A program made the translations under genes and the position numbers. From assembly GCF_028368995.1 (NCBI RefSeq), contig NZ_JAQNDL010000002.1:417724-481723 (forward strand): a stretch of DNA of 64,000 bases. The letters run 5' to 3'. Positions 715 to 59,184 of this stretch are shown here, in pieces (positions within the stretch are counted from its first letter, which is position 1; each line of letters starts with the position of its first letter). This DNA is from Nannocystis bainbridge. GTDB lineage: Bacteria; Myxococcota_A; Polyangia; Nannocystales; Nannocystaceae. The notes below the pieces were generated by a model, which was not told the origin of the DNA, did no database searches, and saw only the letters and a program-made list of their open reading frames with translations.

Positions 715-960
715 GGCTCACGTCGATGCGAAGGGCGCCGGCCGCCGCGGGCCTTCGGGACATGTCCGAAGAGTCAGGCGTGAGCGAACGCTGACGCCTG
801 GCTCACGTCGCTGCGAAGGCCCGCGCTGGATCGGGCCTTCGGGACATGTCTGTAGAGGCAGGCGGTAAGGCGGGCGCGAGGCTCATGACACTGCGAAGGC
901 CGGCATATGAGCGGGCCTTCGGGACATGTCCGAAGAGATAGGCGGGAGCGCGCGGGCGGG
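714..960. repeat. Three tandem copies of an ~82-bp unit (GGCTCAyGwCGmTGCGAAGG...CGGGCCTTCGGGACATGTCyGwAGAG...AGGCGG), each carrying the palindromic core CTTCGGGACATGTCCGAAG
   Basis: Direct reading: unit starts near 714, 800 and 880. Lies in the convergent intergenic gap between the Cys-rich protein gene and sodC. Confidence 0.8.
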
Positions 961-992
961 CGCCGGTGATGCACCGACGACCGCGTGCGGGC

Positions 993-1571
993 TCACGCGC
1001 CCGGGGGGTTGGGGTTCTTGACCGGGGTGGTGTCGCCCGAGGTCGAGGTGATGATGCCGCAGGCGAGGCGGCCGCCGGCGTTGCCGGTGGGCTGGCCGAA
1101 ATCGTCGACCTTCTCGTGGACGATGATCGCGCGGCCGAGGACGTTGTAGGTGCCGCTGGCGATCGAGAAGTGGGCCGGGTCCATGGTCAGCGTCAGCTTG
1201 GCGTGGCCGTCGGCGCCGGCGTCGAGGTTGCCGAAGTCGCCCGGGTGGTGGGCGCCGGACCCGGGCGCGCCGTGGTCGACCTTGTCAGGGTTGAAGTGAC
1301 CGCCGGCCGACTCGCCGTCGGGCGAGGTGCAGTCGCCGAACTCGTGGACGTGCATGCCGTGCTTGCCAGGCGAGAGGCCAGTAATGTCGGCCTCGACCTT
1401 GATCTTGCCGTCGGCGAGCTGGGTGAAGTTGACGGTGCCGTTCACGCCGCTGCTCATCAGCGCGGTCAGGGTGGCCGTGGCGTCGGGCGAGGGCTCCTCG
1501 TCCGTCGTGCAGCCGGGCGCCCCCAGGAGCAGCAGCGGGAGCGTGGCGAGGGTGAATGCGGTCCGGGTCAT
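993..1571 (-). CDS. sodC: Periplasmic Cu/Zn superoxide dismutase with lipoprotein-type signal peptide
   Basis: Translation contains the hallmark SodC motifs HGMHVHEFGDCT, GGHFNP, PGDFGN and GNAGGRLACGII. N-terminus MTRTAFTLATLPLLLLGAPGC is a signal peptide with a lipobox-like Cys. Start chosen at the internal Met before the signal peptide. Confidence 0.9.
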   Translation of the reverse strand: MTRTAFTLATLPLLLLGAPGCTTDEEPSPDATATLTALMSSGVNGTVNFTQLADGKIKVEADITGLSPGKHGMHVHEFGDCTSPDGESAGGHFNPDKVDHGAPGSGAHHPGDFGNLDAGADGHAKLTLTMDPAHFSIASGTYNVLGRAIIVHEKVDDFGQPTGNAGGRLACGIITSTSGDTTPVKNPNPPGA

Positions 1572-1682
1572 GGCCGGGAGCGTGATCGAGGTCCGCGTCC
1601 GGTGCAAACGCGCACGTCGCACGCCGCTGGGGGGCCGCTGGGGGCGGTGGGACGAGGAATTGGAAGTCGCTGCCGGAGGACG

Positions 1683-2177
1683 TCAGGGCGCGCAGGTGCC
1701 GGTGCGCCGGTACTGCCAGGTGTGGCCGATCCGCTGGCCGACGTCGCCGTCAGGGTTGGAGACGCTGGCGGTGAGGCGATCACCGGCGAGGCGGTAGACG
1801 ATCCGGCGCGGGAAGTCGTGATCGGGGTTGACCCAAGTCCACACCCGCTCGCCCGGCGCGGCGACGACCGCGGGATCGCGGCGCTCGAGGAAGATGGTCG
1901 GCTCCTGGCCGGAGGGCTCGGCGTGATACTCGGTGAGGCCGCTGCGGAGGACGGTGAGGGTCATGAGCTCGAGCTCGACGAGCTTGCCGCCCGGCTGGGT
2001 GGTGGTGCTGCGACCACGAAGGCCGCCTCGCATCGGCCGCCAGCTCTCGGTGACGATGTGACGGCCCTGGTGGCGCCAGGTCCCGCACAGCGGCGCCAGC
2101 GCGTCGGCGACGGGGGCGTGCCCGCAGCCGAGTCCGGCCACCAGGACGAGAGCGAGGATCGGCGGACCGGCGCGCAT
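1683..2177 (-). CDS. Hypothetical lipoprotein
   Basis: ORF with MRAGPPILALVLVAGLGCG signal/lipobox at chosen start. Non-artefact composition. No recognisable family. Confidence 0.45.
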   Translation of the reverse strand: MRAGPPILALVLVAGLGCGHAPVADALAPLCGTWRHQGRHIVTESWRPMRGGLRGRSTTTQPGGKLVELELMTLTVLRSGLTEYHAEPSGQEPTIFLERRDPAVVAAPGERVWTWVNPDHDFPRRIVYRLAGDRLTASVSNPDGDVGQRIGHTWQYRRTGTCAP

Positions 2178-2313
2178 GAGGGGACGATAGCCGGACATGC
2201 AGGGTTCCGTCTCGCACCACCGGCGAGCGGCGTCGAGGCGGCTCACGGCGGGTCCACGGCGAAACAGGCCAGGTTGTGCGACCCTTCGGATCGTGGCGCG
2301 CGCGCTGGCTCGC

Positions 2314-3657
2314 ATGACTCTCGGGACATGTCTCTCGGCGCTGGTGGCGTGCAACGAGACGTCGGCGCCGGGCTACACGCTGGCGGGCGAGACGGAGGTC
2401 GAGGGCAGCAGCAGCGAGGGCACCGGCGAGCCGGGCGGGACGCAGCTGCCGGTGACGTTCTCGACGGGCTCGGGGGCGGCGTGCGGCGACGGGGTGCTCG
2501 ATGCCGGCGAGGCGTGCGACGACGGCAACCTCGAGGCCGACGACGGCTGCGACGCGAGCTGTTCGCCGATCGCGGCGGTGGAGTGGACGTACACGCACAA
2601 CGGCGGGGCCGGCCAGGACGACGTCGCCAGCGGGGTGGCGATCGACGGGACCGGCCGGGTGTTCGTGGTCGGGGCGGAGGTGGTGCAGTCGCGCGACGCG
2701 TGGATCGTGGCGCTGGCGCCGGAAGGCCACGAGCTGTGGCGCAAGACGATCGACGCGGCGGGCTTCGACGATGCGTTCGCCGAGGTGGTGGTCGACGCGG
2801 CGGGGCAGGTGTTCGCGGCCGGCCACGAGGAGCTGAGCCCGGGGCTGCGATCGCCGATGATCCGGGCGTTCACGGGCGAGGGGGCGGACCTGTGGAAGTT
2901 CAGCGAGCCGGCGGCAGGGGCCGGGGCGAGCGGGGTCGCGGGGCTGGCGGTGGCCGACGGGGCGATCTATTCGACGGGGTCGGAGGCGGGGTACCCGGTG
3001 CGGTTGGCGATCCGTCGCCACGATCCGGGGAGCGGAGCGGCGACGTGGAAGACGCTGGCGGCGGCAGGGACGGGCGACGCATACGCGGGCGGGATCGCGG
3101 CGGCGGGGGTGGAGATGTTGGCAGCGGGGGCGGCGGAGCTCGACGGGGTGCTGCACCCGCTGCTGGTCCGCGTGGGGCACGACGGGACGCTGATGGCGTC
3201 GACGGTCGAGGCGGAGCACGCAGGGGCGTGGACGGACGCGGTGGCGATCGGCAGCGAGGGCGAGGTGGTGGTGACGGGGCGGCTCGAGGCCCGGCCGGGC
3301 GCAGGCTTCGACGTGGCGGTGCGCCGAATCGCGGCGGGTGAGCTGGTGCGCTGGACGCAGTCGATCGATCAGGTGGCAGGCTTCGATACGGGCCGCGGGG
3401 TGGCGGTGGGCGCAGGCGAGGAGGTGTTCGTGGCCGGGGCGGTGACGAGCGCGAGCGGAGACCTCGAGATCTTCGGAGCGCGCCTGTCGGGGCTCGGCGA
3501 GACGCGCTGGACGCATGTGAACGCGAACCGCGGAGTCGGGCTGGACGACCACGGCTCGGCGGCGGCGTTCGGGCCGGGCTTCGTGGTGCTGGCGGGCGAC
3601 GAGCAGGTGCCGGGCGAGGGGGCGAACGTGTGGGTGCGTCGCTTCCGCGCGGAGTGA
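2314..3657 (+). CDS. Lipoprotein with Myxococcus-type Cys-rich repeat followed by beta-propeller (SBBP/delta-60-like) repeats
   Basis: Signal MTLGTCLSALVAC (lipobox). Motif CGDGVLDAGEACDDGNLEADDGCDASC (C-x2-C-DDGN...DGC-x3-C). Then repeated G-x-(V/I)-(F/Y)-V-x-G / W-x-x-x-x-D blades. Paralogous to 8868..10100, 45717..47387 and 59185..60720. Confidence 0.75.
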   Translation: MTLGTCLSALVACNETSAPGYTLAGETEVEGSSSEGTGEPGGTQLPVTFSTGSGAACGDGVLDAGEACDDGNLEADDGCDASCSPIAAVEWTYTHNGGAGQDDVASGVAIDGTGRVFVVGAEVVQSRDAWIVALAPEGHELWRKTIDAAGFDDAFAEVVVDAAGQVFAAGHEELSPGLRSPMIRAFTGEGADLWKFSEPAAGAGASGVAGLAVADGAIYSTGSEAGYPVRLAIRRHDPGSGAATWKTLAAAGTGDAYAGGIAAAGVEMLAAGAAELDGVLHPLLVRVGHDGTLMASTVEAEHAGAWTDAVAIGSEGEVVVTGRLEARPGAGFDVAVRRIAAGELVRWTQSIDQVAGFDTGRGVAVGAGEEVFVAGAVTSASGDLEIFGARLSGLGETRWTHVNANRGVGLDDHGSAAAFGPGFVVLAGDEQVPGEGANVWVRRFRAE

Positions 3658-3834
3658 GACGAGGTCGCGGAGCGGCGCGGCATATGGGCCGAGGGCGGTC
3701 CGATCGCGCAGGACGAGGCGCGCGGGCGCGTGGCGGCCGGGGCCCTGGGCATGGCTTCGGCTCACCGGGATCGGTGCAGGACGAGCCGCAATTGATCGGA
3801 GGAGGCGAGGCACTGTCCGCGAGAGAGGCTCGCC

Positions 3835-4872
3835 ATGTCGTCGTCCGTCTGTCTTTCTTCGTTGCTCGCGCCGACCTGCGATCCGCCGCCCGATGCGGCG
3901 ATGATCGCCGAGACCTGCGCGATGGCGGATCCAGCGCAGCGCAACCTGTGGATCACGTACGTGTATCACCGGCTCGAGGTGGCGCTGGCGGGGCACCTCG
4001 GCGGCGAGGACGTCAGCTGGTGCGCGTACGGGACGTGGGCTTCGAAGAGCGCGGGGCGGTTCATCCGCGGCGAGGCGGTGGCCGAGGCGCTGCGGCTGGC
4101 GCGGCTGGGTGGGGCGGTGAGCCGGGTCGACGCGGAGGTGCGTGAGCGCATCGGTCGCGGCAACTTGCTGGTGTTCGCCGAGCTGGCGCCGCTGTTCCGC
4201 GCGCTGGTCGAGGTGCTGGCGCGGCCGGTCGGGCAGCGGCGCGCGGCGGCGGCGGTGGCGTTCGCGGGGCTGACGGAGGGGGCGACGCGCGAGGGCGGGC
4301 AGACGCTGCTGCGGCGGGCGTTCGCGGCCTATGTGACGGCGGCGGAGACGGGCGAGGCGAAGGCGCGGGCGGAGCAGATCCTGCTGGCGAACACGCTGGT
4401 GGGTTATCACGAGCAGATCCGGTTGCAGCCGGCGATCGCGGGGGCGCTGTCGGCCCCGCTGGCGCTGCTGGTGACGGCCGACGCGGCGCCGCTGCGACGG
4501 GCGCTGGGCGAGCGCCTCGGCGAGGTGGCGCGGTCGCTGCTGACGCGGTGGATGATGACGATCGAGCTGCCGGAGGGGGCGCTGGCGCTGGGGCGCGATG
4601 TGCCGGCGACCCGCGACGGGCGGATGTTCCCGGCCGCGCTGACGCAGATCACGGACCCGGAGCTGCGCGCGGTGCTGGAGGAGGTCGACCGCACGCCCGA
4701 TACGACGCAGGGCAGCGCGGCGGCCGACTGGGCGGCGCTGGCGGACCGCATGAACTTCATCGTCGATCTGTTCCGCTCGCGCCAGCGCGATTCGTCGCTG
4801 CGCCGGTCGCCGTTCCGCGCCGATCAGGTGGCGGCGATGCAGCTGGGGCTGCGGCCGCTCGGGCCGCTGTAG
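3835..4872 (+). CDS. Hypothetical protein
   Basis: 345-aa ORF with balanced, helix-rich composition. No family recognised. Confidence 0.5.
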   Translation: MSSSVCLSSLLAPTCDPPPDAAMIAETCAMADPAQRNLWITYVYHRLEVALAGHLGGEDVSWCAYGTWASKSAGRFIRGEAVAEALRLARLGGAVSRVDAEVRERIGRGNLLVFAELAPLFRALVEVLARPVGQRRAAAAVAFAGLTEGATREGGQTLLRRAFAAYVTAAETGEAKARAEQILLANTLVGYHEQIRLQPAIAGALSAPLALLVTADAAPLRRALGERLGEVARSLLTRWMMTIELPEGALALGRDVPATRDGRMFPAALTQITDPELRAVLEEVDRTPDTTQGSAAADWAALADRMNFIVDLFRSRQRDSSLRRSPFRADQVAAMQLGLRPLGPL

Positions 4873-4925
4873 GAAACTTCAGGCGGCGAACGCAGGCCCC
4901 GGGTCAGGAGCGGCGTGTGGTCTTT

Positions 4926-5010
4926 AGGACATGCTCGAGAGGACATGCTCATGTGGGCATGTCGAATCGGGCATGTTTGATGAGGCATGTCCGAATGGAC
5001 ATGCCGGGGT
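4926..5010. repeat. Six tandem ~14-bp units, each with the core R-GG-R-CATG-Y (aGGACATGCTCgag aGGACATGCTCatg tGGGCATGTCGaat cGGGCATGTTTgat gAGGCATGTCCgaa tGGACATGCCgggg)
   Basis: Direct reading. Lies in the convergent intergenic region between 3835..4872(+) and 5010..5402(-). Same half-site family as the 714..960 repeats. Confidence 0.8.
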
Positions 5011-5402
5011 CACGGCCGGACCCATCGCAGGACGGCGTCGGCGGCGGAGTCCGGGGAGGTGCTGAAGCACAGGCTGGCGCCCGGGGCGACGGCCTGGACG
5101 AGGTTGACGATCCGCTCGAACAGCAGCAGGTGGGCGGGCTGGGTGCGGATGCCGGCGCCGATCATGACGGCGGCAGGCGGACGCGCAGTGAGGCGGGCGC
5201 GCAGGACGGGCTCGGCCTCGGGCCAGCGGTCGGTGATCAGGCACCACTCGGCGTCGAAGCCGGCCGCGGTGGTGGCGTCGAGCGAGGCCTGGAGGCCGGC
5301 GGCGAGCTTGGGAGCGTCGAGGCCGGGGAACTGGCTGAAGTCGACGACGGCGGGGTCGAGGCCGACGAGCAGGACGAATTTCTTGGCGGAGGCGGTGGTC
5401 AT
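5010..5402 (-). CDS. Hypothetical small protein
   Basis: 130-aa ORF, MTTASAKKFVLLVGLDPAVVDF..., non-artefact composition. Confidence 0.5.
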   Translation of the reverse strand: MTTASAKKFVLLVGLDPAVVDFSQFPGLDAPKLAAGLQASLDATTAAGFDAEWCLITDRWPEAEPVLRARLTARPPAAVMIGAGIRTQPAHLLLFERIVNLVQAVAPGASLCFSTSPDSAADAVLRWVRP

Positions 5403-5489
5403 GGCGATGGGCTGCCGGGGAGCGCGGGGTGGAGCGCCGAGGTTAGCCGCGCCGCCTTTTCGGCGGACGGCGCGGTTTGACGGCGCGGA

Positions 5490-7892
5490 TCAGCGCCAGA
5501 AGTCCTTGCGCTTGCCGGGCGGGGGCGGCGGGCTGCGCTTGTCCTCGACGAGCTTGCGCAGGGCGGCCACGGCTTCCTTCAGGAGCGCCAGCAGGTCGTC
5601 GGCGCCGAGGGACCCGCGCAAGCGATCGACGAGCGGCGCGAGGGCGGTGGCGAGGGCGTCGAGGCCGACGGTGCGCAGGTCCTCGAGCAGCTCGATCAGG
5701 CGCGCGATCGGCAGCTGCGCGGCCGCCGTGTCGACGGCGCGCTCGAGGTCGCGGACGATGGCGCCCAGGCGCGCGAGGTATGGGATCGCAGAGACGGTCG
5801 CGCCCTCGGGCGACTCCTGCCTGGGCGGAGGGGGCGAAGGGCTGCGTGGAGGCGAGGCGGGCGCGGGGGCGCGGGCGCCCGGAGGGGGCGGGGCCGAGAG
5901 CGTGGCGGAACGGGGAGGGGCGGCGGATCGCTTGCTGCTCATGGAGATCGCACCGACGAGCTTGGGCTCGCCGCGCCTGGCGTGTTCCATCGGCATGGCG
6001 TCGAACCGCGGCTGGGACCATCCGGCCGGGCGCTCGACGGGCTGGGTGACCGTGCGCGGGTTGCCGCCGGGGTTGACGACTTCGCGGTCGACGGCGACGA
6101 AGGCGGTGAAGCGCGAGAGCACCTGGTGACGCCGCGAGACGGCGACGATGGCTTGCTCGAGCCGCGACGGATCGGCGGTGCGGGCGGCGTACTGATCCTC
6201 GAGATCGCGGATGTGCGCGCGGGCCCACGACTGCGCCAGCGCGGCGGCCGGCGGGGCAGGGTCGAGGCGGACGCGCTGGTGGTACTCGGTGCCGGCGGGC
6301 AAGCGGCCGCGCAGCTCGAGGGTGGCGCCGGGGCGCGGCTGGCCGTGCCAGCGGGCGTGGACGACCAGCGGGGCGCCGGCGAACACGGCGGGCAGGCGGT
6401 GCGGGGCCTGGGTGGCGAGGTCGAGGCCGTCGCCAGCGACGCTGACTTCGACGAGGACAGGGGTGGCGATCCGGCGGTGGATCTTGGCCATGACCTCGTC
6501 GAGGCGCTCCTCGCTCTCGACGAGCTCGCAGGCGCCGCCGCCGAGAGCCGCGAGGCGGCGCAGGAAGCCGGCGTTGACGGCCTTGTCGATGCCGAGGGTG
6601 AAGACGCGGATGTCGCCGAGGCGCGGGCCGTGGTCGCGCAGGATCTCGTCCTCGTTGCCGACCTGGCCGTCGGTGACGAGCACGAGCACGCGGTCGCGGT
6701 CGTCGTCGCCGGCGAGCATGCGGGTGGCGAGCGCGAGCGGCCTGGTGAGATCGGTGCCGCCGCGCTCTTGGAGGCCGGCGAGGTACTCGACGGCGCGGAA
6801 GCGGTTGCGGTCGCTGGCGGTCGCGAGCTGGGCGCCGAGGCTCGGCGGCGACTCGACGGTGTTGTCGAAGGCGAGCACGGCGAAGCGGTCGCGGGCGCCG
6901 AGAGTGTCGATGATGCGCGCGGCAGCCCGGCGCGCGGCGACCATCTTCCACCCGCCCATCGAGCCGGAGCGATCGAGGACGAGCACGACGTCGCGCGGGC
7001 GACCCTGGGCGGCGGCGCCGACGGGCGGGACGATGGTGAGGACGGCGGTGGCGCCCTCGCCGTCGGCGTCGGGGGCCCACACTGCGGCGCTGTGCAGGGC
7101 TGCATCGCCGAGGGTCCAGCGGAGGATGAAGTCGCGGTCGAGGCGCTCGCCGGGCCGCAGCTCGAGGCGCCAGCCGCCGGCCTCGGGCGCGGCGAAGACC
7201 TCGTGAAGGCTGGCGCGCAGGTTCGAGACGGGCAGACCGGCGCCGTCGACAGTGACGGCGAGCGCGAGTCGGACGGGGCTGGCGAACCCGGGCAGCAGGA
7301 CGGGCGGGGAGATCCGCGAGGCGTCGGGGACACGATCGGTGTCGGCAGCGAGGCCGGTGCCGGCCTGCTCGCCGCCGAGCGGGGCGCCGGGGATGTAGCG
7401 CGGGGCGACCACCAGCGGGAAGGCCCAGGTGACCTCGCCGTCCTCGATCGGCAGCGGACCGACGGTGCGCAGGGTGATGACGGCGTGGTCGCCGGGCACG
7501 AGGTTGCCGACGCGCAGGGTGAAGACGCCCGGTCGATCTTCCTCGGCGATCGCGGCGCGCTGGCCGGCGGCGATGGCCTGCTCGTAGACCTCGCGGGCCC
7601 GGCCGCGCTCGTCGATCACGCCGTCGACGATCCGCCCCTGGACCTGCATGCGAAAGGCGTAAACGGCGGCGCGATCGGGCAACGGAAAGATGTACGTGGC
7701 CTCGATCGCCGCGCCGGTGTTGTTGACGAAGGTCTGCTGGATCTCGGTGGCGACCTGCAGGCCGCTGATCCGCGCATTGACGGACAGGGCGGCGAGCGGG
7801 AGGCGACCCTGGGAGGTCTCGAGGCGACCGAAGGCGGGCTCGTCGAGTGGCTGGGTGAGCGTGGGGTCGATGGTGAGCGCCGTGGGGATCAT
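5490..7892 (-). CDS. VIT (vault/inter-alpha-trypsin) domain + von Willebrand factor type A domain protein with Pro-rich and helical C-terminal tail
   Basis: N-terminal VIT-like region (IFPLPDRAAVYAFRMQVQGRIVDGVIDERGRAREVYEQAIAAGQRAA...VFTLRVGNLVPG). vWA MIDAS motif VVLVLDRSGSMGG...TDLTRPL...LVTDGQVGNE. The C-terminal 150 aa are Pro/Ala-rich followed by an amphipathic helix. Confidence 0.85.
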   Translation of the reverse strand: MIPTALTIDPTLTQPLDEPAFGRLETSQGRLPLAALSVNARISGLQVATEIQQTFVNNTGAAIEATYIFPLPDRAAVYAFRMQVQGRIVDGVIDERGRAREVYEQAIAAGQRAAIAEEDRPGVFTLRVGNLVPGDHAVITLRTVGPLPIEDGEVTWAFPLVVAPRYIPGAPLGGEQAGTGLAADTDRVPDASRISPPVLLPGFASPVRLALAVTVDGAGLPVSNLRASLHEVFAAPEAGGWRLELRPGERLDRDFILRWTLGDAALHSAAVWAPDADGEGATAVLTIVPPVGAAAQGRPRDVVLVLDRSGSMGGWKMVAARRAAARIIDTLGARDRFAVLAFDNTVESPPSLGAQLATASDRNRFRAVEYLAGLQERGGTDLTRPLALATRMLAGDDDRDRVLVLVTDGQVGNEDEILRDHGPRLGDIRVFTLGIDKAVNAGFLRRLAALGGGACELVESEERLDEVMAKIHRRIATPVLVEVSVAGDGLDLATQAPHRLPAVFAGAPLVVHARWHGQPRPGATLELRGRLPAGTEYHQRVRLDPAPPAAALAQSWARAHIRDLEDQYAARTADPSRLEQAIVAVSRRHQVLSRFTAFVAVDREVVNPGGNPRTVTQPVERPAGWSQPRFDAMPMEHARRGEPKLVGAISMSSKRSAAPPRSATLSAPPPPGARAPAPASPPRSPSPPPPRQESPEGATVSAIPYLARLGAIVRDLERAVDTAAAQLPIARLIELLEDLRTVGLDALATALAPLVDRLRGSLGADDLLALLKEAVAALRKLVEDKRSPPPPPGKRKDFWR

Positions 7893-8494
7893 CGGGAGTC
7901 CTCGGGAGGTTCGGGGTCGTCGGAGCAGTCGGGTTCGGAGCGGGTGAGGAGGCGGCGGCGGGCGAGCTCGGCGAGCAGCGGGGCGGCTGCGGCGAGCAGG
8001 GCCGCGGCGTCGGCGTCGGTGGCGTCGCGCGCGGCGGAGAAGCCGAGGCGGACGCCAGGAGCGAGCTCGAGCTCGAGGGTGGGCGTGAGCGCGGGGGCGG
8101 CGGGAAGCGGCGGCGCTTCGGGCTCGAGCGTGGTGACGGGGGCACGCCAGAAGTCGCGGCGACCGGCGGAGCGCGGGGCGGGACGCAGCTCGACCTGCGA
8201 GAGCTGCGTGAGCGCAGAGTCGTCGAGGGTCGGGAGGAGGCGCTGGATCTCGGCGAGCGGCTTGCCCTCGGCTTGCAGGCGCTTGATGGCGATCAACTGG
8301 GCGAGGTGCCGCGGGCCATAGAGGGCGGTGCGGCCCTGCAGCGCGGGGCGATCGAGGAGGCCGAGTGTCGTGTAGTAACGGATGCTGCGCTCGTCAGGGA
8401 CAGCGCGCACCTGGCCGTTGGCGGGGGCCTCCTCGCTCGCCAGGCGCTGCTCGGCCTGGCGGCTGAGCTCGCGGATCGTCCAGGTGACGGTCAC
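7889..8494 (-). CDS. MerR-family HTH transcriptional regulator
   Basis: N-terminal WTIRELSRQAE...RSIRYYTTLGLLDRP...LYGPRHLAQLIAIKRLQAEGKPLAEI matches the MerR HTH plus dimerisation helix. Its stop overlaps the ATG of the VIT-vWA gene by 4 nt (ATGA), implying translational coupling. GTG start. Confidence 0.75.
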   Translation of the reverse strand: MTVTWTIRELSRQAEQRLASEEAPANGQVRAVPDERSIRYYTTLGLLDRPALQGRTALYGPRHLAQLIAIKRLQAEGKPLAEIQRLLPTLDDSALTQLSQVELRPAPRSAGRRDFWRAPVTTLEPEAPPLPAAPALTPTLELELAPGVRLGFSAARDATDADAAALLAAAAPLLAELARRRLLTRSEPDCSDDPEPPEDSR

Positions 8495-8600
8495 GGGGAG
8501 GATGGTGACAGTGTTATATGACAGTGTCGAGATTGAATTTTTAAATCATTGGAAATATGAGGGAAAATCGGACGCGCCGAGCGACTCGGGAGCGACATCG
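8495..8600. promoter_or_regulatory. AT-rich promoter-like region upstream of the merR/VIT-vWA operon, with direct repeat TGACAGTGT-TATA-TGACAGTGTC
   Basis: Local GC falls to ~40% (gtgacagtgttatatgacagtgtcgagattgaatttttaaatcattggaaatatgag). Perfect 9-bp direct repeat separated by TATA, immediately 5' of the merR start. Confidence 0.4.
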
Positions 8601-8867
8601 CTCACCGGGCTGTTCGCGCAGGAGGGCGATGGCACGCGGGCGCAGGCGGACGTGGTGAGGCGTGTCGTCCTCGAGTTCGCGCCCTTGCGAAGCTTCGTGA
8701 CGAAGAAGCAGCGATGAAGAGCGAGCGTGGCGGCTCACGATCGGCGATCGGTCGATGTTGACGGGCTTGGTCGTTCGCGCAAAACCAGAGGTGAGGCGCT
8801 CGGGGTCGGGTCGGTTCGGTCGGTGACTCTGTCCCGCGCGGGGCAGCGAACTTCTTGCTCGCCGCGC

Positions 8868-10100
8868 TCAACCCGACACGAACCGACGGATCCACAGGTC
8901 CGTGTCCGAGATGGCGACCGTCTCGAACCCGACGACGACGAAGAACTCGGGCCCGACCGCGACGTCGTAGCCGCGCTCGCTGAACCCGAGTGTCGTGTTG
9001 TCGTACAGTGCCGACCAGCGCGCCGCTCCGTCGCCCTCGAGCCGCGCCATGTAAAGATCCTCTTGCGCCGGACCGTCGCCGACCGACCCGGTCACGAGCA
9101 CCGACCCGTCGAAGTCGGCCGCCACTCCGAGCCCGCCGTACCCGTAATTCGAAGTATCGAGCAGATGCGTCCATCGCTCGCTCCCGTCGGCCGCGATCCT
9201 GCGCGCCGATTTCCCCTGGCTCAGCCATCCAGTCAACACGACGTCGCCTTCCTCGCCGATCGCCGTCACGGCGTGCCATGCCCCCGACGTGCCCGTCTCG
9301 ACCGCGAGCGACTGCAGCGCCCCGGACGCGTCGAACACCGCCGTCAGCGGCCGATCTTTCCCTTCGCCCGGAGGCAGCGCCGCGCCCGCGACGATCAACC
9401 GCCCGTTCGCCTCCGTGAGCCCGTACCCGCGCGTCGATCCCTCGGCCTTCGCCGGCGTCTCCCATACCGGCGCTCCCGAGCCCACGTTGTGCCGTCGCAG
9501 CACCATATGGGTGCCCGTCGAATCATTGAACGCCTCGCCGAGCGAGTACAGGCCCTCGTGCGCGAGCACCAGCGCCGTCACGCTCGAGCTCTCCTCGTCG
9601 GGCGTCGGCACCGAGTATGCCCACACGTCGTTGCCGTCGCGGTCGAGTCGGCGCACGACCCCCAGCCGCGACGCGTCCCACCCCGCGACGAAGATCGCCC
9701 CGTCGTCGCCGACCACGACATCATTGAACACCGCGTCGAGCTCCAGCGCCGCCGCGAACCGTCGCGTCCACAGCTCCGTGCCGTCGGGCGCGAGCACCAG
9801 CACGAGCCCGGCGAAGTTCTCGTCCGCGTCCGTCTCGAGCCCGACCACGACGATCCGCCCTTGCGCGTCGATCGCCACCGCGCGCGCCTCGTCGCGCCCC
9901 CCTGCGGCCCCGCCATGGACGTGCGTCCATTCGACCGCCGGCCCCTCGCACTCTGTCGGACACGCGGGGCCGGTGGTCGGGTCAGCTTCGGTCGTCGAGG
10001 ATGCGTCCGTCGCCGTCGTGTCGCCTGTATCGCCCGGAACGCCGGGGCAGGCTGTCGCGCACAAAAGGAAAGGCAGGGCGAGGATCGATCGCGTCATCAA
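8868..10100 (-). CDS. Beta-propeller repeat lipoprotein (paralog family)
   Basis: Signal MMTRSILALPFLLCATAC. Thr/Asp-rich linker, then blades with repeated VVVG / LWTRRF / VFVAGW motifs as in 2314..3657. Confidence 0.75.
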   Translation of the reverse strand: MMTRSILALPFLLCATACPGVPGDTGDTTATDASSTTEADPTTGPACPTECEGPAVEWTHVHGGAAGGRDEARAVAIDAQGRIVVVGLETDADENFAGLVLVLAPDGTELWTRRFAAALELDAVFNDVVVGDDGAIFVAGWDASRLGVVRRLDRDGNDVWAYSVPTPDEESSSVTALVLAHEGLYSLGEAFNDSTGTHMVLRRHNVGSGAPVWETPAKAEGSTRGYGLTEANGRLIVAGAALPPGEGKDRPLTAVFDASGALQSLAVETGTSGAWHAVTAIGEEGDVVLTGWLSQGKSARRIAADGSERWTHLLDTSNYGYGGLGVAADFDGSVLVTGSVGDGPAQEDLYMARLEGDGAARWSALYDNTTLGFSERGYDVAVGPEFFVVVGFETVAISDTDLWIRRFVSG

Positions 10101-10214: not shown

Positions 10215-11624
10215 TCACGACGCGGCAGACCTCGCGGTGATTTCTGCCGGGCCACCTCGTTCAAGGGCGGCTGCGATGAAGTCGTGGATCGTCTGCGCGA
10301 TCGATGGATCGAAGTACATGCTGTAGTGGTCGCCGTCAGGCAGCACGAGGCTCGATGCGTGGGGGATCGCGGCGCCGATCGCCGCGGCTGCGGCCGGGTG
10401 AGCGACCTCGTCTGCGGCGCCGGTCATGACCAGGGTCGGCGCGGTGATCGAGGGCGGCGGACCGCTCGCGCTCTCGGCGAAGAACTCGCGCAGCAGGAGC
10501 GCATAGCGGTGCAGCGCGACCGGGCTGCGGAACGGCATGCTCGCCAGGTGGACGAGCGAAGGGTCGATCTCCCCGAGCACGTGAGAGACCTGGTCGCGCG
10601 CCTCCCCGTCGCGCTCGCCGCCGCCGCCGAACACGACGTGGTGCACGTGGATGAATCGTCGCACGCCGAGGGTCACTGCCAGATCGAGCACATTGCAGGT
10701 CCCGCCGAAGTTGTGCTCGAAGATCATGCTGCGCTGGCGGGCCTCGAAGCTCAGGCTGGCGGCGAAGTGCCACGCGCTGGTCGGCACGCCGCGGCCCACC
10801 GGACGGACCGTGAGGTCGACGCCGCAGCCCGCCTGGCTGCGGCGCTCGGGCGCGGCCGCCGGCTCGATCATCCGCCGCGGCAATGGGGCGACAGCGCACA
10901 GGTACGCGACCTCGTGCTCGTCGATCAGTGCCAGCAATCGTGCGGGCAAGTAGAACGGCGCGGTGTAGAGCCGCACCGTGGCGCCTTGGGCGAGCGGGAA
11001 GAAGATTTCGAGCAACGACACGTCGAAGAACAGCGGCGCGGTGTTGAGGCAGCGCGCGCCGGCCTCGACCGGGTAGTACGCGACGATGTCGCGGAAGAAC
11101 GCGGCCACGTTGGCGTGGGAGATCCGCACGCCCTTCGGGGCGCCCGTCGAGCCCGAGGTGAAGAGGCAATAGGCGTCGCGCTCTGGCTCGGGACCACGGC
11201 GAGGCGCCGCATCATCATCCTCGGCGAGCGTCGCGGTCAGCTCGGCGTCGGCCGCGACGCAGACGACCCCGGGCGCCGCGTCGGCGACCAGCGCTCGCAG
11301 CTCGGGTCGCACGACGGCGTCGCCCGGGGCGATGCGCCCGAGCAGGAGCCGGAGACGGGCCGGCGGCAGCGACGGGTCGAGCGGCACTGTCACGACCCCG
11401 GCCAGCCAGGCGCCGAGCATCGCCGTGACGACGTCGATGGATTTGTCGGCGACGATCACCAGCGGACCGCCGCCGAGCCGCGCCGCGAACGAGCGCGCCC
11501 GCCGGACGAGCGCGCCGTAGGTGACCGAGGCGCGGTCGTCGATGAGCGCGATGCGCTCGGGGCTGGCGGCCGCGTGCGCTGCGATCGCGTCGGTCGCCAG
11601 CGCTGCGGGGTCAGACGCGCGCAT
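10215..11624 (-). CDS. Atypical chimera: ANL-superfamily adenylation domain N-terminal half (A1-A4 motifs only) fused in-frame to an alpha/beta-hydrolase-like C-terminal region. Possibly a decayed or rearranged gene
   Basis: N-terminal portion has ERIALIDDRASVTYGALVRRARSFAARL (A1/A2 region), LFTSGSTGAPKGV (A3) and FFDVSLLEIFFPLAQGATV (A4). A5-A10 are missing. The C-terminal ~180 aa (TLVMTGAADEV...LPDGDHYSMYF...IHDFI) look like an alpha/beta-hydrolase C-terminus with the catalytic His region, but no clear GxSxG nucleophile elbow. Single uninterrupted frame of 469 aa. Confidence 0.5.
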   Translation of the reverse strand: MRASDPAALATDAIAAHAAASPERIALIDDRASVTYGALVRRARSFAARLGGGPLVIVADKSIDVVTAMLGAWLAGVVTVPLDPSLPPARLRLLLGRIAPGDAVVRPELRALVADAAPGVVCVAADAELTATLAEDDDAAPRRGPEPERDAYCLFTSGSTGAPKGVRISHANVAAFFRDIVAYYPVEAGARCLNTAPLFFDVSLLEIFFPLAQGATVRLYTAPFYLPARLLALIDEHEVAYLCAVAPLPRRMIEPAAAPERRSQAGCGVDLTVRPVGRGVPTSAWHFAASLSFEARQRSMIFEHNFGGTCNVLDLAVTLGVRRFIHVHHVVFGGGGERDGEARDQVSHVLGEIDPSLVHLASMPFRSPVALHRYALLLREFFAESASGPPPSITAPTLVMTGAADEVAHPAAAAAIGAAIPHASSLVLPDGDHYSMYFDPSIAQTIHDFIAAALERGGPAEITARSAAS

Positions 11625-11850
11625 GGACCCACGCCGTGAGGCTGTCGAGGCTGCGCAGCGCCGCGAAGTCGTCGGCGCCGCCGCCGAATGCCAGGCCGAA
11701 GCGTCGCTCGAGGCGCGCGAGGAACTCGATCACCTCGAGCGAGTCGAAGCCTGCCGCGCCGAGCAGGTCGGCGTCATCGGCGATCGTCAGGTCGGGGACA
11801 TGCTTGATGTCGCGGATATCCGCGACGATGGTGCTCTTGATGTGCATCAT
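11611..11850 (-). CDS. Stand-alone acyl/peptidyl carrier protein
   Basis: GFDSLEVIEFLARLERRFGL is a canonical phosphopantetheine attachment site (DSL). 79 aa. SD GAGGGAA upstream of ATG. 3' end overlaps the start of the adenylation-like gene by 14 nt. Confidence 0.85.
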   Translation of the reverse strand: MMHIKSTIVADIRDIKHVPDLTIADDADLLGAAGFDSLEVIEFLARLERRFGLAFGGGADDFAALRSLDSLTAWVHARV

Positions 11851-11880
11851 GGTTCCCTCGTTTAGGAGTGCGGACAGGGG

Positions 11881-12942
11881 TCAGGCGGACAGAGGCTCGC
11901 GGGCGAGGCCCTCGAGGTAGCGGTGCGAGGTCTCCAGGCGGTACAGCGCTCCGATTGCGACCGGGCGCCGGACGTCGGGAGCCTCGACCAGCGGCGAGAT
12001 CACCTGATTGAGCCAGCCGCTCGCGTGCTGCGCGTCCATGCGGATGTGCAGGCGGTGGTACTCGAGGCCCTGCTCGCTCAGCCCATTGCGCCGCCAGCCG
12101 GTGACGATGTGTTGAAACCGGTCCGGAACCAGATACTCGGTCACCGCGTAGTAACCGATGGCCTTGTGGAAGTGCCGGCGGTGCAGGGCGAGCAGCACGG
12201 ACAGGTTGCCGCACACCAGCGATTCGAGCGACGCGGCGCCGTCGAGGTCGGCTTCGTCGATGCCGACATCCGCGAGCGCCTGCGTGAACAGGACGGTGTG
12301 GGTCGCCGCGAGCGTGCCGTTGCCGATCTCGTCCCAGAAGTTGCGACCGATCTCCAGCTTGACCCCGCCGCTGGTGCCGAGCTGCAACAGCGCGAGGATG
12401 TCGTCGAGGCGCGCGTCGATCGTGCTCTCATCGACGAAGAACCGCCGCAGGTCGGCGAGCCCGGCCCGCTGCGCCAGGAAATCGGTGTAGTACGGGTGCT
12501 TGTAGGCGGGGTGGGCGTGGATCAGCCGGGTCAACCACCGGCGGAACGCGCCTGGCTCGCGCGGCATGTCGTCCAGCGGCGAGAGGTCGATGGAGCGCTC
12601 GAGGTCCGCGAGGAACGCCCGCTCCGCGAACCCGGCGATGTCGGCGAGGATGCCCGCGAACTGCGGGTGTGCGCGTCCGGGCTTGGGGATCTTCAGGTGG
12701 AGGTCGTAGAGCGCGTGCAGCACCCGATGCAGCTCGAGCGCGTAGCCCGGGTCGCCCGCCGCCTTGTCGCACACCTGCGCGGTCAGCCGGAGCAAGGCGT
12801 CGCGCCGCTCGGCGTCGGCGAACAAACCACCGAGCTCGTCGGCGTCGAGGCGCAACAGCTCGCGGACGACGGTGGTCAGCGGCCCCGGCCCGGTCTGCAT
12901 CGAGCGCGCCGGCTCGAGCGCGCGCAGTAGTTCGAGGCTCAT
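11881..12942 (-). CDS. Heme-oxygenase-like iron-containing redox enzyme family protein (Haem_oxygenas_2 / HDO-type diiron fold)
   Basis: HPYYTDFLAQRAGLADLRRFFVDES...KLEIGRNFWDEIGNGTLAATHTVLF...HFHKAIGYYAVTEYLVPDRF: Glu/His-bearing helices typical of the PqqC/CADD/UndA-like iron-containing redox enzyme family. Sits 30 bp upstream of the carrier protein gene on the same strand. Confidence 0.7.
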   Translation of the reverse strand: MSLELLRALEPARSMQTGPGPLTTVVRELLRLDADELGGLFADAERRDALLRLTAQVCDKAAGDPGYALELHRVLHALYDLHLKIPKPGRAHPQFAGILADIAGFAERAFLADLERSIDLSPLDDMPREPGAFRRWLTRLIHAHPAYKHPYYTDFLAQRAGLADLRRFFVDESTIDARLDDILALLQLGTSGGVKLEIGRNFWDEIGNGTLAATHTVLFTQALADVGIDEADLDGAASLESLVCGNLSVLLALHRRHFHKAIGYYAVTEYLVPDRFQHIVTGWRRNGLSEQGLEYHRLHIRMDAQHASGWLNQVISPLVEAPDVRRPVAIGALYRLETSHRYLEGLAREPLSA

Positions 12943-13289
12943 GACAACACCGCCATCCGCTCGGAGACGATGGCCATCGCGTCGACCTCGAACCACGCGG
13001 TGTCATGTGTGCGGGTTTTATGGGGAACAATCATCATACAAGCGCGCGCTTTCGTGATTTGTCAGGACTTGCGGCCGCACGAGTCATCGTGCTTCGGCCT
13101 CGCCGCGGCAACCTAACAGGGCGGGGCCGGGCCGAAATTGCATCCGAATTACACGAATGCAGGCTCGAAATTATCTCCCGGATCCGGACTCACCGCATCG
13201 TCAGACGCGCGCGCACAGTAGGGTGGGGGGCGTCCAGCGGCCGGAGACGGGTCCGCGCCCACCGTGTGAGTGCGCTACACATGAGGCGC

Positions 13290-13543
13290 CGTTGAACGAG
13301 CGTCTGGAGCAGGCCGGCGTGCCGCTGCTCGCCGTGTTCGGCGAGCAGGACCAGATCTACGCCGCACACGAGGCTTTGCGAGCCTACGCGAAGGTCACGG
13401 GGTCCCAGACCCGGCTCATCCCGGACGCGGGCCACGCTCCGAACGTCGAGCAACCGAGGGTGCTGGCGCAACTGATCCTGGCCTTCTCGGCCCCGGCGGA
13501 CCCCGGCGGCGAACGACGCCATGAAGAGCGGTCCAGTCGGTGA
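13290..13543 (+). pseudogene. C-terminal fragment of an alpha/beta hydrolase (remnant)
   Basis: LEQAGVPLLAVFGEQDQIYAAHEALRAYAKVTGSQTRLIPDAGHAPNVEQPRVLAQLILAF is a typical hydrolase C-terminus with catalytic-His motif. No N-terminal nucleophile-containing half upstream. The preceding 300 bp are low-GC non-coding. Confidence 0.4.
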
Positions 13544-13876: not shown

Positions 13877-14908
13877 GTGACCGACGAACACTGCGCGGAC
13901 GCTGTCCAGATCCTCTCGCTCCGCGAGGTAGTGCGCAAACGGCCCGCCATGTACGTCGGGGGGACCGACGAGGGGACTGGCCCGTTGCACCTCCTGCTGG
14001 ACGTCCTCGCCGGTGCCGTCGAGCTGGCCGTGCGCGGTCGCTGCACCCGCATCGACATCGTCGTCGAGGCCGACGACCACATCACTGTCGCCGACGACGG
14101 CCCCGGCATCCCGGCGGCCGCGCTCGTCGACCTCCTCGAGGTCCCCGCGGGCCGGACCCGCGGCGAACTCACGTTCCTCTGCTCCGACCTGCCGCTCGCC
14201 GTCGCCCTGTGCGACCCCCTCGAGATCGACACCGTCCACGCCGGCGAGCAGGCGAGCGTGGTCTATGCCGCCGGCTTGCAGCGCGCTCCCGTGCGGGTGG
14301 CCCCTGCCGCACGGTCGTCGGGTACCCGGATCCGCTTCCGCCCCGATCCGCACATCTTCCAGTGCACGCGTGTCCCGCGGGCCGAGGCGGCGCGGCGCCT
14401 CGCCGACCTCGCGTTCGTCCTCCCCGCGGTGTCGCTGTCGTGGACGTTCGCCGAGCCCCGCGTAGCGAACCTCGCCGATCGCGTGCGTGTCGAAGTCGGG
14501 GCCTCGCCTTTCGGTGTTGCCCACCACCATGGCGCCTACGGCACCGGCGAGCGTCCGATCGCCGTCGAAGTCGCCCTCGCCTGGCGCGCCGAGCCGCGCG
14601 GACGGCCGCCGCAGATTCATGCCTTCGCCAACCTCCGGCCGAGCGCGGGCGGCCAGCACGTCCTCGGCGTCGCGGCGGGCGTGCGCCGGTTCCTGAAGGC
14701 CCGCGGCGACCGCGGCCTCCACGACCTCGTCGCCGCCGTCGCCGTGCAGCTCACCGACCCCCGATTCCGCGGAGCGTCGCAGAGCGTGCTGCTAGACGCA
14801 GGGGTGCGTGCCGCCGTCAAGCAGGCGACCCTGATCGCCTTGATGTCCTGGGCCGTGCGCGACCCGGAGGCCGTCGAAGCGCTGCATCGCCGTACGCGGG
14901 CCCGCTGA
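13877..14908 (+). CDS. GyrB-like GHKL ATPase domain protein (short stand-alone homolog of DNA gyrase B N-terminus)
   Basis: ILSLREVVRKRPAMYVGGTDEGTGPLHLLLDVLAGAVELAVRG...DIVVEADDHITVADDGPGIP aligns with the GyrB N-terminal Bergerat ATP-binding fold (LEAVRKRPGMYIG...HLV.EVVDN...DNGRGIP). Only 343 aa, so the Toprim and C-terminal domains are absent. GTG start. Confidence 0.65.
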   Translation: MTDEHCADAVQILSLREVVRKRPAMYVGGTDEGTGPLHLLLDVLAGAVELAVRGRCTRIDIVVEADDHITVADDGPGIPAAALVDLLEVPAGRTRGELTFLCSDLPLAVALCDPLEIDTVHAGEQASVVYAAGLQRAPVRVAPAARSSGTRIRFRPDPHIFQCTRVPRAEAARRLADLAFVLPAVSLSWTFAEPRVANLADRVRVEVGASPFGVAHHHGAYGTGERPIAVEVALAWRAEPRGRPPQIHAFANLRPSAGGQHVLGVAAGVRRFLKARGDRGLHDLVAAVAVQLTDPRFRGASQSVLLDAGVRAAVKQATLIALMSWAVRDPEAVEALHRRTRAR

Positions 14909-15037: not shown

Positions 15038-15676
15038 TCATTGGTGAGGAACGGGATCTCGTCGGGGCTGCGCCCGCAGCTGCTCGTAAAGCCGCTCGCT
15101 CGGGGTCGGACCCTCGGGCACCGGGTCCGGTTGGCCGGGCAGGGCCTCGTGTACGTTCATGGAGCCCGTCGCCTCGTACCACGTATGGAAGTCGAGGACC
15201 TCGACCTGCCCGCCGCGCACCCGGAGCTGGCCCGCGCTGGTGGTGAGGCGCTCGTGTCCGCCATCGGCGCTCGTCCCGAGGACCATGACCACGATTTCAA
15301 CGTACCCGTCTGGCAGCCGCGGCATGGCGATCTGCCACGGCCGAGCGGTGGACAGGCCGGGTACCCGGACCTCGGGGCCGAGGACCGCCGGGACAAGCTC
15401 CTCGCCGCGCCCATCGACGATCATCATGCCCGTGGCGAACACGAGGTCGCTGTCGGTGTTGTTGGTGATCTCGGAGGTCACGGCGGAGGCGGTGATCACG
15501 GAGCACATCACGAGCTCGGATTGTGCGCCGGTGCAGGCGTGCGCGAGCTTGAGGCTCGCCGCGCATAACGGCTCGTCGACGGGCTGGACCAGCGGGGGCT
15601 CCGGCGCCGGTCGCCGCATGCACGCAGCGAACGCGACGAGGACGAAGATCGCACACGTATCCGGGCGCCAGAGCAT
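15038..15676 (-). CDS. Hypothetical lipoprotein
   Basis: MLWRPDTCAIFVLVAFAAC signal/lipobox. 212 aa with non-artefact composition. Confidence 0.5.
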   Translation of the reverse strand: MLWRPDTCAIFVLVAFAACMRRPAPEPPLVQPVDEPLCAASLKLAHACTGAQSELVMCSVITASAVTSEITNNTDSDLVFATGMMIVDGRGEELVPAVLGPEVRVPGLSTARPWQIAMPRLPDGYVEIVVMVLGTSADGGHERLTTSAGQLRVRGGQVEVLDFHTWYEATGSMNVHEALPGQPDPVPEGPTPSERLYEQLRAQPRRDPVPHQ

Positions 15677-15789
15677 CGTCGACCTACTTCGCACGCGGCG
15701 AAGCTGATGGTCAATCGCCGCAGCTCACGGTCGCTGGCGCGCCAGCGCTCGGACATCGCAGCAACGAGTCGTGTTCGCGGTCGGCATCG

Positions 15790-48396: not shown

Positions 48397-48514
48397 GGGT
48401 TCGTTGTACCACCACGCCGGCCGAACGTGCTCCCGGCGTGGGTTGAAAGGGGGAGGATCGCGGCGGAACGAGGGGGTGAAGCGCGGTCGGGTGTGGGACG
48501 AAACGGGCCTGAAA

Positions 48515-58849: not shown

Positions 58850-59184
58850 GGACCTCCGGGCGCGCGCGATCGCGGAGCGAGGGCGGACGCTCCGGCAACG
58901 TAGCGCCGAGCGCACGCGGCCGTCAACGCGGGCAGAAATCACGAGCGTCGCAAGCCCGCGCGCACGGAGGCGCTGGAGCGCGCGAGGCAGGGGTCTGCGG
59001 TCCGCACACGCGGTGGAGCGACCTGCGGGCGCGAGGCCGCGAGGGGGATGTCCCTTGGGACAGGTTGATGGCGAAGTCGATGCGCCGGCTGAAAGAACAT
59101 GTCCGAAGAGACATGGCATGGGATGTCGGGCGCGATTGCGATCGTCGCCTGCCGCGGAGACTTTGTTACCCTCGCGCCATTCTC

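Follow-up and report, generated by a model that had tools for sequence, protein, structure and literature searches.

GyrB ranks among the major antibiotic targets, and resistance-guided genome mining uses additional copies of it in natural-product producers as beacons. The aminocoumarin producers carry gyrB-R or parY-R, which lie inside the antibiotic cluster and encode complete, active, drug-insensitive B subunits that replace the sensitive subunit (reviewed in PMC3189412). A different departure from the canonical enzyme is found in meiosis, where the Topo VI-B-like subunits, which are of type IIB, eukaryotic and of known partner, are degenerate GHKL components of topoisomerase-like machines. 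The fold that concerns us here, a GHKL (Bergerat-fold) domain followed by a transducer domain, is represented by the 43-kDa fragment of Escherichia coli GyrB (GyrB43; PDB 1ei1, 4prv and 6eng), a proteolytic or recombinant product. We analysed a stretch of 64,000 nucleotides (nt) of Nannocystis bainbridge (contig NZ_JAQNDL010000002.1, positions 417,724 to 481,723; hereafter the window, which means this whole stretch) and found that the same two-domain module is encoded there by a natural stand-alone gene of 343 codons. The fold and the superfamily are already known; what is new is that the protein is a stand-alone, motif-eroded GyrB43 paralogue belonging to an uncharacterised family. We put at roughly 0.55 the probability that it is an ATPase-dead pseudoenzyme kept for a binding or partner role.

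The gene is real and complete, and its product has the two-domain GyrB43 fold. An in-frame TAG three codons upstream of the GTG fixes the N-terminus, so that no longer form is possible; the GC contents at the three codon positions (0.80/0.52/0.89) match those of real genes in this window of ~70% GC, and a hypothetical protein of N. bainbridge is 100% identical to the product. Residues 3-330 align with the E. coli 43-kDa fragment (PDB 6eng, E 1e-29), the identity to E. coli GyrB being 28% and the alignable part running from residue 3 to about 385 in E. coli numbering. Pfam recognises the transducer (DNA_gyraseB, PF00204, E 1.3e-7, above the curated cutoff) and, below cutoff, HATPase_c (E 2e-4). 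The AlphaFold model, built on the family alignment, has a mean predicted local distance difference test (pLDDT) score of 82, with low confidence confined to the N-terminal arm and the lid; its top Foldseek match is E. coli GyrB43 (4prv, E 5e-25), the best structural matches are GyrB43 crystal structures, and model and Foldseek agree on the Bergerat fold that defines the GHKL superfamily. A C-terminal helix closes the transducer domain at the same end point as in the rest of the stand-alone family.

In addition to the fold and the order of its domains, the protein shares with E. coli GyrB43 the N-terminal arm, the RKRPxMY and DxGxG motifs, Gly164-Thr165 and the VEVAL(Q/A)W strand; RKRPAMYVGGTDE occupies residues 20-32 and DDGPGIP residues 73-79. 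A complete DNA gyrase subunit B, of ~640-800 amino acids (aa), comprises GHKL, transducer, Toprim and a C-terminal GyrA-binding tail, and of this architecture only the HATPase_c and DNA_gyraseB parts were matched, the score against the NCBIfam gyrB equivalog (TIGR01059 / NF004189) being 105 bits with a cutoff of 882. The protein contains no Toprim or C-terminal tail domain, tblastn with the C-terminal halves of GyrB as queries detected no remnant of either across the whole window, and the window holds only this one GyrB-like sequence. Unlike E. coli GyrB, the protein is without Asn46, the lid glycines, Lys337, Toprim and tail, and would thus have no canonical GyrA interface. An earlier preliminary description of this stretch had recognised the N-terminal ATP-binding region of GyrB, the same two motifs and the lack of Toprim and GyrA-interaction domains; the 6eng alignment, the PF00204 and 4prv matches, the domain search and the tblastn search bear it out on each of these points.

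The state of the ATP site is less canonical. In the alignment to E. coli GyrB, whose numbering is used below, the catalytic base Glu42 is replaced by Asp and the Mg-ATP ligand Asn46 by Gly, which leaves GHKL motif I (the N-box) without its Asn. Motif III (GxxGxG) is likewise lost, the lid residues Gly114, Gly117 and Gly119 being Thr, Cys and Asp (T-F-L-C-S-D), and, relative to E. coli, the lid region lacks 15 residues (8 gapped at 81-88 and 7 in the lid proper); it falls ~7 residues short of the consensus of the stand-alone family. Of the GyrB catalytic set (Glu42, Asn46, Asp73, the lid glycines and the Gln335-Thr336-Lys337 loop, or QTK), only Asp73 is retained. Motif II (DxGxG) persists as D73-D-G-P-G77, its Asp73 and Gly77 being invariant within the Nannocystis family, and the floor of the pocket is kept at Ala47, Asp73, Gly75, Gly77, Ile78, Pro79, Gly164 and Thr165. 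The change of Arg76 to Pro is typical, Pro being the commonest residue at this position (76/122 stand-alone members). The preliminary description had proposed an alignment with full-length GyrB to judge the conservation of the lid and of the aminocoumarin contacts, and the outcome is divided: DDGPGIP and the pocket floor stand, while Asn46, the lid, the Arg136 equivalent, Arg76 and QTK have changed.

In E. coli GyrB, substitutions of Asn46 abolish ATP binding and reduce aminocoumarin binding, and Arg136, which touches the coumarin ring and whose change likewise lowers drug binding, is the predominant site of aminocoumarin resistance (PMC3189412). Judged by alignment, the window protein has lost the Mg-ATP and phosphate-binding elements and the main contacts for aminocoumarins. 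It is probably no longer able to bind or hydrolyse ATP in the canonical way, and its pocket is likely to be a poor binder or a non-binder of aminocoumarins.

The origin of so short a GyrB-like protein is best seen from its relatives. A word-indexed search returned ~24 homologues of 332-368 aa, all the named ones from Nannocystis or Nannocystaceae, which form three groups: P0002, from a Nannocystaceae metagenome-assembled genome (MAG), at 74% identity, a clade A at 51-58% and a clade B at 38-42%. Since the window protein and all of these close homologues start and end at the same alignment positions, the truncation is a family character and not an accident at the locus. An exhaustive profile search of 1.84 billion cluster representatives gave 17,011 matches, of which the top ~120, almost all of 300-400 aa, score above the first full-length GyrBs; the stand-alone family thus comprises proteins of ~330-390 aa in more than 120 clusters at 50% identity. 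Its named members come from Nannocystis, Nannocystaceae, Kofleriaceae, Archangium, Myxococcaceae, 'Myxococcales' MAGs and one Xanthomonadales MAG, and their database names go no further than 'ATP-binding protein' or 'DNA gyrase subunit B'. Searched with a DNA pattern of the lid motif, metagenomes yielded 35 loci, including a freshwater group at GC 0.52, and 33 of them hold a stand-alone family gene of ~324-370 aa; the same pattern had no match in viral contigs, and a profile-guided scan of species-representative genomes confirmed 3 loci, being swamped by pattern matches. We found no publication on this family and no solved structure that matches it. It is a previously undescribed family, mainly of Myxococcota.

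Some 85-90% of the members retain the catalytic set together with a lid motif of their own. Among 122 members aligned to E. coli GyrB, the catalytic positions are kept in ~85-95%: Glu42 in 102, Asn46 in 106, Asp73 and Gly77 in 121 each, Gly117 in 104, Gly119 in 116, Thr165 in 114 and Lys/Arg337 in 102. What sets them apart from true GyrBs is a signature of Thr for Lys103 (91/122), His for Lys110 (108/122) and Pro for Gln335 (96/122), together with a lid that reads P-T-x-D-G-H-x-P-H-V-H, a motif that true GyrBs do not have. Family examples such as P0018 of N. punicea, P0006 and P0280 of N. exedens and P0340 of Kofleriaceae have the length, termini and domain pair of the window protein, which differs from the rest in having lost the PTxDGHxPHVH lid, the P-T-K/R loop and Asn46; the lid motif and the loop are wanting in P0002 as well. 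The window protein is nevertheless a member of the family, by descent and not by motif. Its length and termini are those of the family, it is nearer to family members than to true GyrB, and it shares with them Pro76, the RIRFRPDP block, the C-terminal RWAExxPEAA helix and, with the Nannocystis proteins, 42 invariant positions. Its family profile score, 312 bits, is the lowest among members and below that of many true GyrBs.

Another stand-alone protein is known by structure. PDB 3CWV, a structural genomics entry for a 'DNA gyrase B subunit, truncated' of Myxococcus xanthus, on which we found no paper, also stands alone (~369 aa) and has the GyrB43 fold. It matches the window protein over residues 17-193 (E 7e-10), more weakly than E. 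coli GyrB does. We rejected it as the structure of the present family; being weakly similar, and retrieved neither by an intact member, at E 1e-10, nor by the lid segment, it represents a separate, more divergent lineage. Several metagenomic proteins carry the module in other arrangements. P0065 (747 aa) is a covalent tandem in which an intact module (residues 13-379) is followed by a degenerate one (residues 387-733; N46R, K337D). An N-terminal DUF7919 domain (PF25535) is fused to the module in P0083, P0124, P0134, P0150, P0162 and P0208 (~480 aa; metagenomes and an Archangium MAG), and Cys and His abound in this domain, which has motifs like CDLC...HYxxxHxYxPP. In P0227 and P0232 (~650 aa, metagenomes) the module precedes a C-terminal S-adenosylmethionine-dependent methyltransferase; these Toprim-less GyrB derivatives bear the true-GyrB signature (K103, QTK) and were not accepted as family members.

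The erosion of the ATP site, deepest in the window protein and P0002 among all members, is older than the window copy. P0002 has the same N46G, the same loss of the lid and the same Ala-Ser at 335-336, position 337 being Gln in the window protein and Arg in P0002, and since N46G and lid loss are common to both, the ATP site was lost before the two lines split. A second Nannocystis subclade (N. pusilla, ILAH1) has independently acquired E42A and N46Y and deleted its lid. A neighbour-joining tree with E. coli GyrB43 as its root gives the longest branch to the pair of window protein and P0002 (root-to-tip 1.77 and 1.72 vs 1.35-1.50 for intact members); the pair is nested in clade A beside the subclade of cultured Nannocystis with eroded lids, and the intact-lid metagenomic members branch earlier. 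Tajima relative-rate tests with clade-B outgroups gave 46 unique changes in the window protein against 18 in the intact P0003 (p = 5e-4), and ~40 against 22 in comparison with P0004 and P0005 (p = 0.02-0.05).

Acceleration does not amount to free drift. Between the window copy and P0002, the Nei-Gojobori ratio of nonsynonymous to synonymous substitution rates (dN/dS) is 0.51 at a dS of 0.30, and it declines along the gene from 0.70 in the GHKL third through 0.51 in the middle to 0.37 in the transducer. The counts depart from neutrality (p = 1.5e-4): 124 nonsynonymous and 48 synonymous differences would be expected and 102 and 70 were observed, and a crude simulation puts at 1-8% the chance that both frames would have stayed open by luck. 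The window gene thus evolves at an accelerated rate and under weak but significant purifying selection, which is strongest on the transducer.

On these grounds we favour the view that the window gene encodes a pseudoenzyme, dead as an ATPase and maintained for binding. The ancestral form would have consisted of GHKL and transducer with the full ATP-binding set and no DNA-cleavage part, presumably an ATP-operated dimerising clamp. On the lineage that led to N. bainbridge and to one Nannocystaceae MAG, Asn46 and the glycine-rich phosphate lid would have been lost and the loop that senses the gamma-phosphate degraded (QTK to ASQ in the window copy), the fold, the pocket floor (Asp73, Gly77, Thr165) and especially the transducer being kept throughout. 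If it still functions, the protein would then work by binding a protein or a ligand; it is probably neither a topoisomerase subunit nor an aminocoumarin decoy. The most plausible role, by analogy, is that of a non-catalytic dimer partner of an intact GyrB43-like module, because the N-terminal arm and the transducer are the parts through which GyrB43 modules dimerise, and because P0065 joins an intact and a degenerate module in tandem. Several Nannocystis genomes, too, combine a clade-A copy with an intact clade-B copy, which is a further precedent for pairing dead and live modules. A conceptual likeness is offered by the meiotic Topo VI-B-like subunits, in which a GHKL and transducer module without ATP motifs is retained as a structural partner, although theirs is a different lineage and only for them is the partner known.

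Several observations weigh against this view. The retained Asp73, Gly77 and Thr165 make some binding of an adenine-like ligand conceivable, the dimer-partner role is drawn from the dimerisation of GyrB43 and from a single tandem fusion, and no intact clade-B partner for N. bainbridge turned up in the protein database. The dN/dS of other clade-A pairs is 0.65-0.73, against 0.22, with the same estimator, for the cytochrome P450 gene beside two of these copies, so that the whole of clade A, and not this copy alone, is weakly constrained or fast-evolving and the gene could be dispensable. One N. pusilla copy, finally, carries a 1-nt deletion; we did not accept it as proof of pseudogenisation, since a single-base deletion in a G-run is ambiguous and may be an assembly error.

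The surroundings of the relatives differ between clade A and the intact copies. Clade-A copies have no conserved neighbours in the loci compared: P0002 lies among a short-chain dehydrogenase (KR) fragment and RHS-repeat and ISL3 transposase fragments; the N. exedens copy is divergent from a 2,904-aa non-ribosomal peptide synthetase-polyketide synthase (NRPS-PKS) that is accompanied by a SnoaL gene, and it converges on a P450 gene; the SCPEA4 copy has the same P450 and no assembly line; and the N. pusilla copy has a serpin gene and genes without assigned function. Among intact copies, translational coupling to an enzyme encoded upstream is frequent. The clade-B copy of N. punicea and of N. exedens follows an alpha/beta hydrolase of ~375 aa by 5-6 nt in conserved synteny (L004:8870-11059, L014:6865-9059), the hydrolases being 90% and the GyrB43-like proteins only 78% identical, and at three independent Kofleriaceae-type loci an adenosine deaminase gene (PF00962, E ~1e-100) ends 1-10 nt upstream of the intact gene, with a sigma70-region-4 protein downstream in L015 and L031. 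A copy in a Myxococcaceae MAG overlaps a RelA/SpoT-like gene (a weak, sub-threshold match), and one metagenomic family member, the only such case, has 187 nt further downstream a 597-aa ABC ATPase of the OLD/GajA/AriA-like type that weakly matches an OLD-type Toprim (L012:9321-11114). The gene upstream in the Myxococcaceae locus L011 was considered as a cryptic paralogue and rejected (hhalign probability 0.5%). Many family members are solitary.

In the window itself (Table 1), the preliminary description had placed the gene in an accessory, scarred neighbourhood, between a hydrolase remnant and an insertion sequence (IS) fragment. Both remnants are there, a truncated adenylation gene adds to them, and a 218-aa open reading frame (ORF) also sits before the IS fragment. 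The only relative detected for this ORF (32% over 123 aa) is a small gene directly upstream of the SCPEA4 orthologue (L005:8255-8620). The adenylation, carrier and heme-oxygenase-like genes have the look of what is left, in chimeric or truncated form, of a small biosynthetic operon (10215-12996, reverse strand). The hydrolase remnant was examined as a relic of the clade-B partner hydrolase, to which BLAST found no similarity, and as a second copy of the hydrolase-like piece that ends the adenylation ORF, which the comparison did not support either. Downstream of the IS5 fragment lies a gene for a 670-aa protein without assigned function, and the rest of the window holds miscellaneous regulators, oxidoreductases and many genes without a family match; the dual-kinase, integrase and WYL/WCX genes likewise point to an accessory region. 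GC skew is strongly positive (0.16-0.26) at 1-9000 and 56000-59000, with values near zero elsewhere in the window. A consensus scan for promoters and terminators around the gene gave no match, which carries no information in a high-GC myxobacterium.

Table 1. Features of the stand-alone GyrB43-like gene, of its neighbours in the window and of the adenosine deaminase-coupled loci of relatives (residue names with three-digit or lower numbers preceded by "E. coli" follow E. coli GyrB).
Feature	Position	Strand	Basis or remark
Stand-alone GyrB43-like gene, complete, 343 aa	13877..14908	+	GTG start, TGA stop (ORF list); codon-position GC; database identity
GHKL (Bergerat-fold) domain, residues 1-197	13877..14467	+	E. 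coli GyrB43 alignment; sub-cutoff HATPase_c; helices and strands of the model
N-terminal arm, residues 1-16			inside the GHKL domain; E. coli Tyr5 is His
Degenerate N-box HLLLDVLAGAVELAV	13988..14032	+	E. coli Glu42 to Asp, Asn46 to Gly, Glu50 to Leu
Retained adenine-pocket motif TVADDGPGIP	14084..14122	+	E. coli Asp73 and Gly77 kept, Arg76 to Pro
Collapsed ATP lid PAGRTRGELTFLCSDL, residues 90-105	14144..14191	+	alignment; model pLDDT <50 at residues 93-100
His121, equivalent of E. coli Arg136	14237..14239	+	aminocoumarin contact and resistance hotspot
Retained Gly149-Thr150-Arg-Ile, adenine-pocket floor	14321..14332	+	E. coli Gly164-Thr165 and Val167
Transducer (GyrB second) domain, residues 198-343	14468..14905	+	PF00204 match; alignment
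Degenerate QTK loop, Ala-Ser-Gln	14774..14782	+	E. coli Gln335-Thr336-Lys337; family consensus Pro-Thr-Lys/Arg
Adenylation-domain ORF	10215-11624	-	profile positions 3-306 of 384, then an alpha/beta-hydrolase C-terminal piece
Carrier protein (PP-binding)	11611-11850	-	
Heme-oxygenase-like diiron enzyme	11881-12996	-	PF14518
Alpha/beta hydrolase C-terminal remnant (...DAGHAPNVEQP...)	13157..13543	+	Pfam Abhydrolase_6, E 5e-5, below curated cutoff
218-aa ORF, lipoprotein-like signal (…VAFAAC, by eye)	15038-15694	-	no Pfam match
IS5-family transposase N-terminal fragment, DUF772 only, 113 aa	15790..16131	+	PF05598, E 5.7e-15
1,181-aa protein with two protein-kinase domains	47567-51112	+	
Tyrosine-recombinase (phage-integrase family) gene	54104-55126	-	
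WYL/WCX transcriptional regulator	61784-62773	+	
Adenosine deaminase-coupled locus	L015:6866-9035		
Adenosine deaminase-coupled locus	L027:4668-6890	-	with an adjacent family gene
Adenosine deaminase-coupled locus	L031:2197-4426		

The scars in the window and the loss of the ATP site could be read in less constructive ways. The main rival, which we regard as possible though we do not favour it, is slow decay: the gene would be a duplicate that the cell can do without, its ATP site gone and the rest on the way to a pseudogene, with the open frame and a dN/dS below 1 reflecting no more than past or residual selection. The long branch and fast rate of the window copy would follow from it, as would the high dN/dS across the clade (0.5-0.73, against 0.22 for the neighbouring gene), the independent loss of Glu42 and Asn46 in the second Nannocystis subclade, the possible frameshift in one N. 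pusilla strain, and scarred surroundings (hydrolase remnant, IS5 fragment, truncated adenylation gene) without conserved context. It fits poorly with an ATP-site loss that is shared with an orthologue at a dS of 0.30, both frames being intact and all indels in frame, with the rejection of neutrality, with the 42 invariant positions and with the conservation of both termini. A cruder form of the same idea makes the gene no more than a pseudogenised piece of the housekeeping gyrB that a deletion or an IS event left behind; the preliminary description had named such a fragment as what would overturn its view. The presence of the N-terminal half only, the nearby IS fragment and gene remnants and the lost ATP-binding residues speak for it, and it is effectively refuted by the rest: the protein is 28% identical to E. 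coli GyrB as against 51-74% to stand-alone proteins with the same start and end, it is nested inside a distinct, old family, the window has no Toprim or tail remnant, and the coding signature is intact with a dN/dS below 1, so that we see neither an arbitrary truncation nor a broken frame nor neutral change.

Two further explanations give the protein a role in chemical or genetic conflict, and we hold both to be very unlikely. The preliminary description, right about a stand-alone GyrB N-terminal protein in a scarred locus of a myxobacterium, had also suggested a decoy or self-resistance factor that sequesters a GyrB-directed natural product or toxin and so spares the gyrase of the producer. 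The pocket floor used by nearly all GyrB ATP-site inhibitors is indeed kept (Asp73, Gly77, Ile78, Pro79, Thr165), a fast rate suits an arms race, the adenylation, carrier and heme-oxygenase-like cassette lies upstream in the window, and the N. exedens orthologue adjoins an NRPS-PKS with SnoaL and P450 genes. A decoy must bind the drug, however, and a pocket with Asn46 changed to Gly, Arg76 to Pro, Arg136 to His and Glu50 to Leu under a collapsed lid looks like that of an aminocoumarin non-binder; the decoy is therefore unsupported, and would be conceivable only for ligands that need no more than the pocket floor. Nor is there a cluster to go with it: gyrase-inhibitor clusters, assembly lines for polyketides or non-ribosomal peptides, pentapeptide-repeat proteins and further topoisomerase genes are all absent from the window. 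The N. exedens locus was rejected as syntenic, the adenylation domains being 34% identical with no other shared genes, most relatives do not lie beside biosynthetic genes, and we found no literature precedent for a truncated-GyrB decoy. The gyrB-R and parY-R subunits are alike in being GyrB paralogues with a change at the Arg136 equivalent, but the window protein is without the Toprim, tail and ATP-binding residues and the antibiotic cluster that go with them. The other explanation, no more probable, makes the gene an orphaned piece of a two-gene conflict or defence module in which the GHKL clamp would act as sensor or regulator and the enzymatic partner has been lost. Here the coupling of intact relatives to variable upstream enzymes (hydrolase, adenosine deaminase at three loci, RelA/SpoT-like), the locus with an OLD/GajA-like ATPase downstream, the fast evolution and the variable genomic location are suggestive. 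On the other side, the defence models of PADLOC-DB 2.0 matched neither the window protein nor any GyrB43-like member tested, the family is absent from the viral contigs searched with its lid pattern, the adenosine deaminase stands beside a glutathione synthetase and may be housekeeping, many members are solitary, and no partner gene or partner remnant was found flanking the window gene.

The case has consequences for the mining of these genomes. A 'truncated GyrB' match is no sure sign that a myxobacterial genome holds a gyrase-inhibitor cluster, and knowledge of the family prevents such false positives. The window copy taken alone looks like an ordinary accessory gene under weak constraint, and the family is the more interesting lead, with its His-rich lid, its operon coupling, its DUF7919 fusions and its erosion series; the Nannocystis copies form a natural series from an intact to a fully eroded ATP site, which could be used to study how a GHKL enzyme turns into a pseudoenzyme. 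It is tempting to go one step further and to suppose, although we consider it unlikely, that the dead protein is a selected regulator, which would form heterodimers, through the conserved GyrB43 dimer interface of N-terminal arm and transducer, with an intact stand-alone paralogue or with the N-gate of the housekeeping gyrase and thereby cap or tune an ATP-operated clamp. If this were true, it would be a new kind of endogenous regulator, made from the dead half of gyrase B, and part of a wider myxobacterial family of 'half-gyrase' clamps that are often coupled in operons to nucleotide-metabolising enzymes such as adenosine deaminase.

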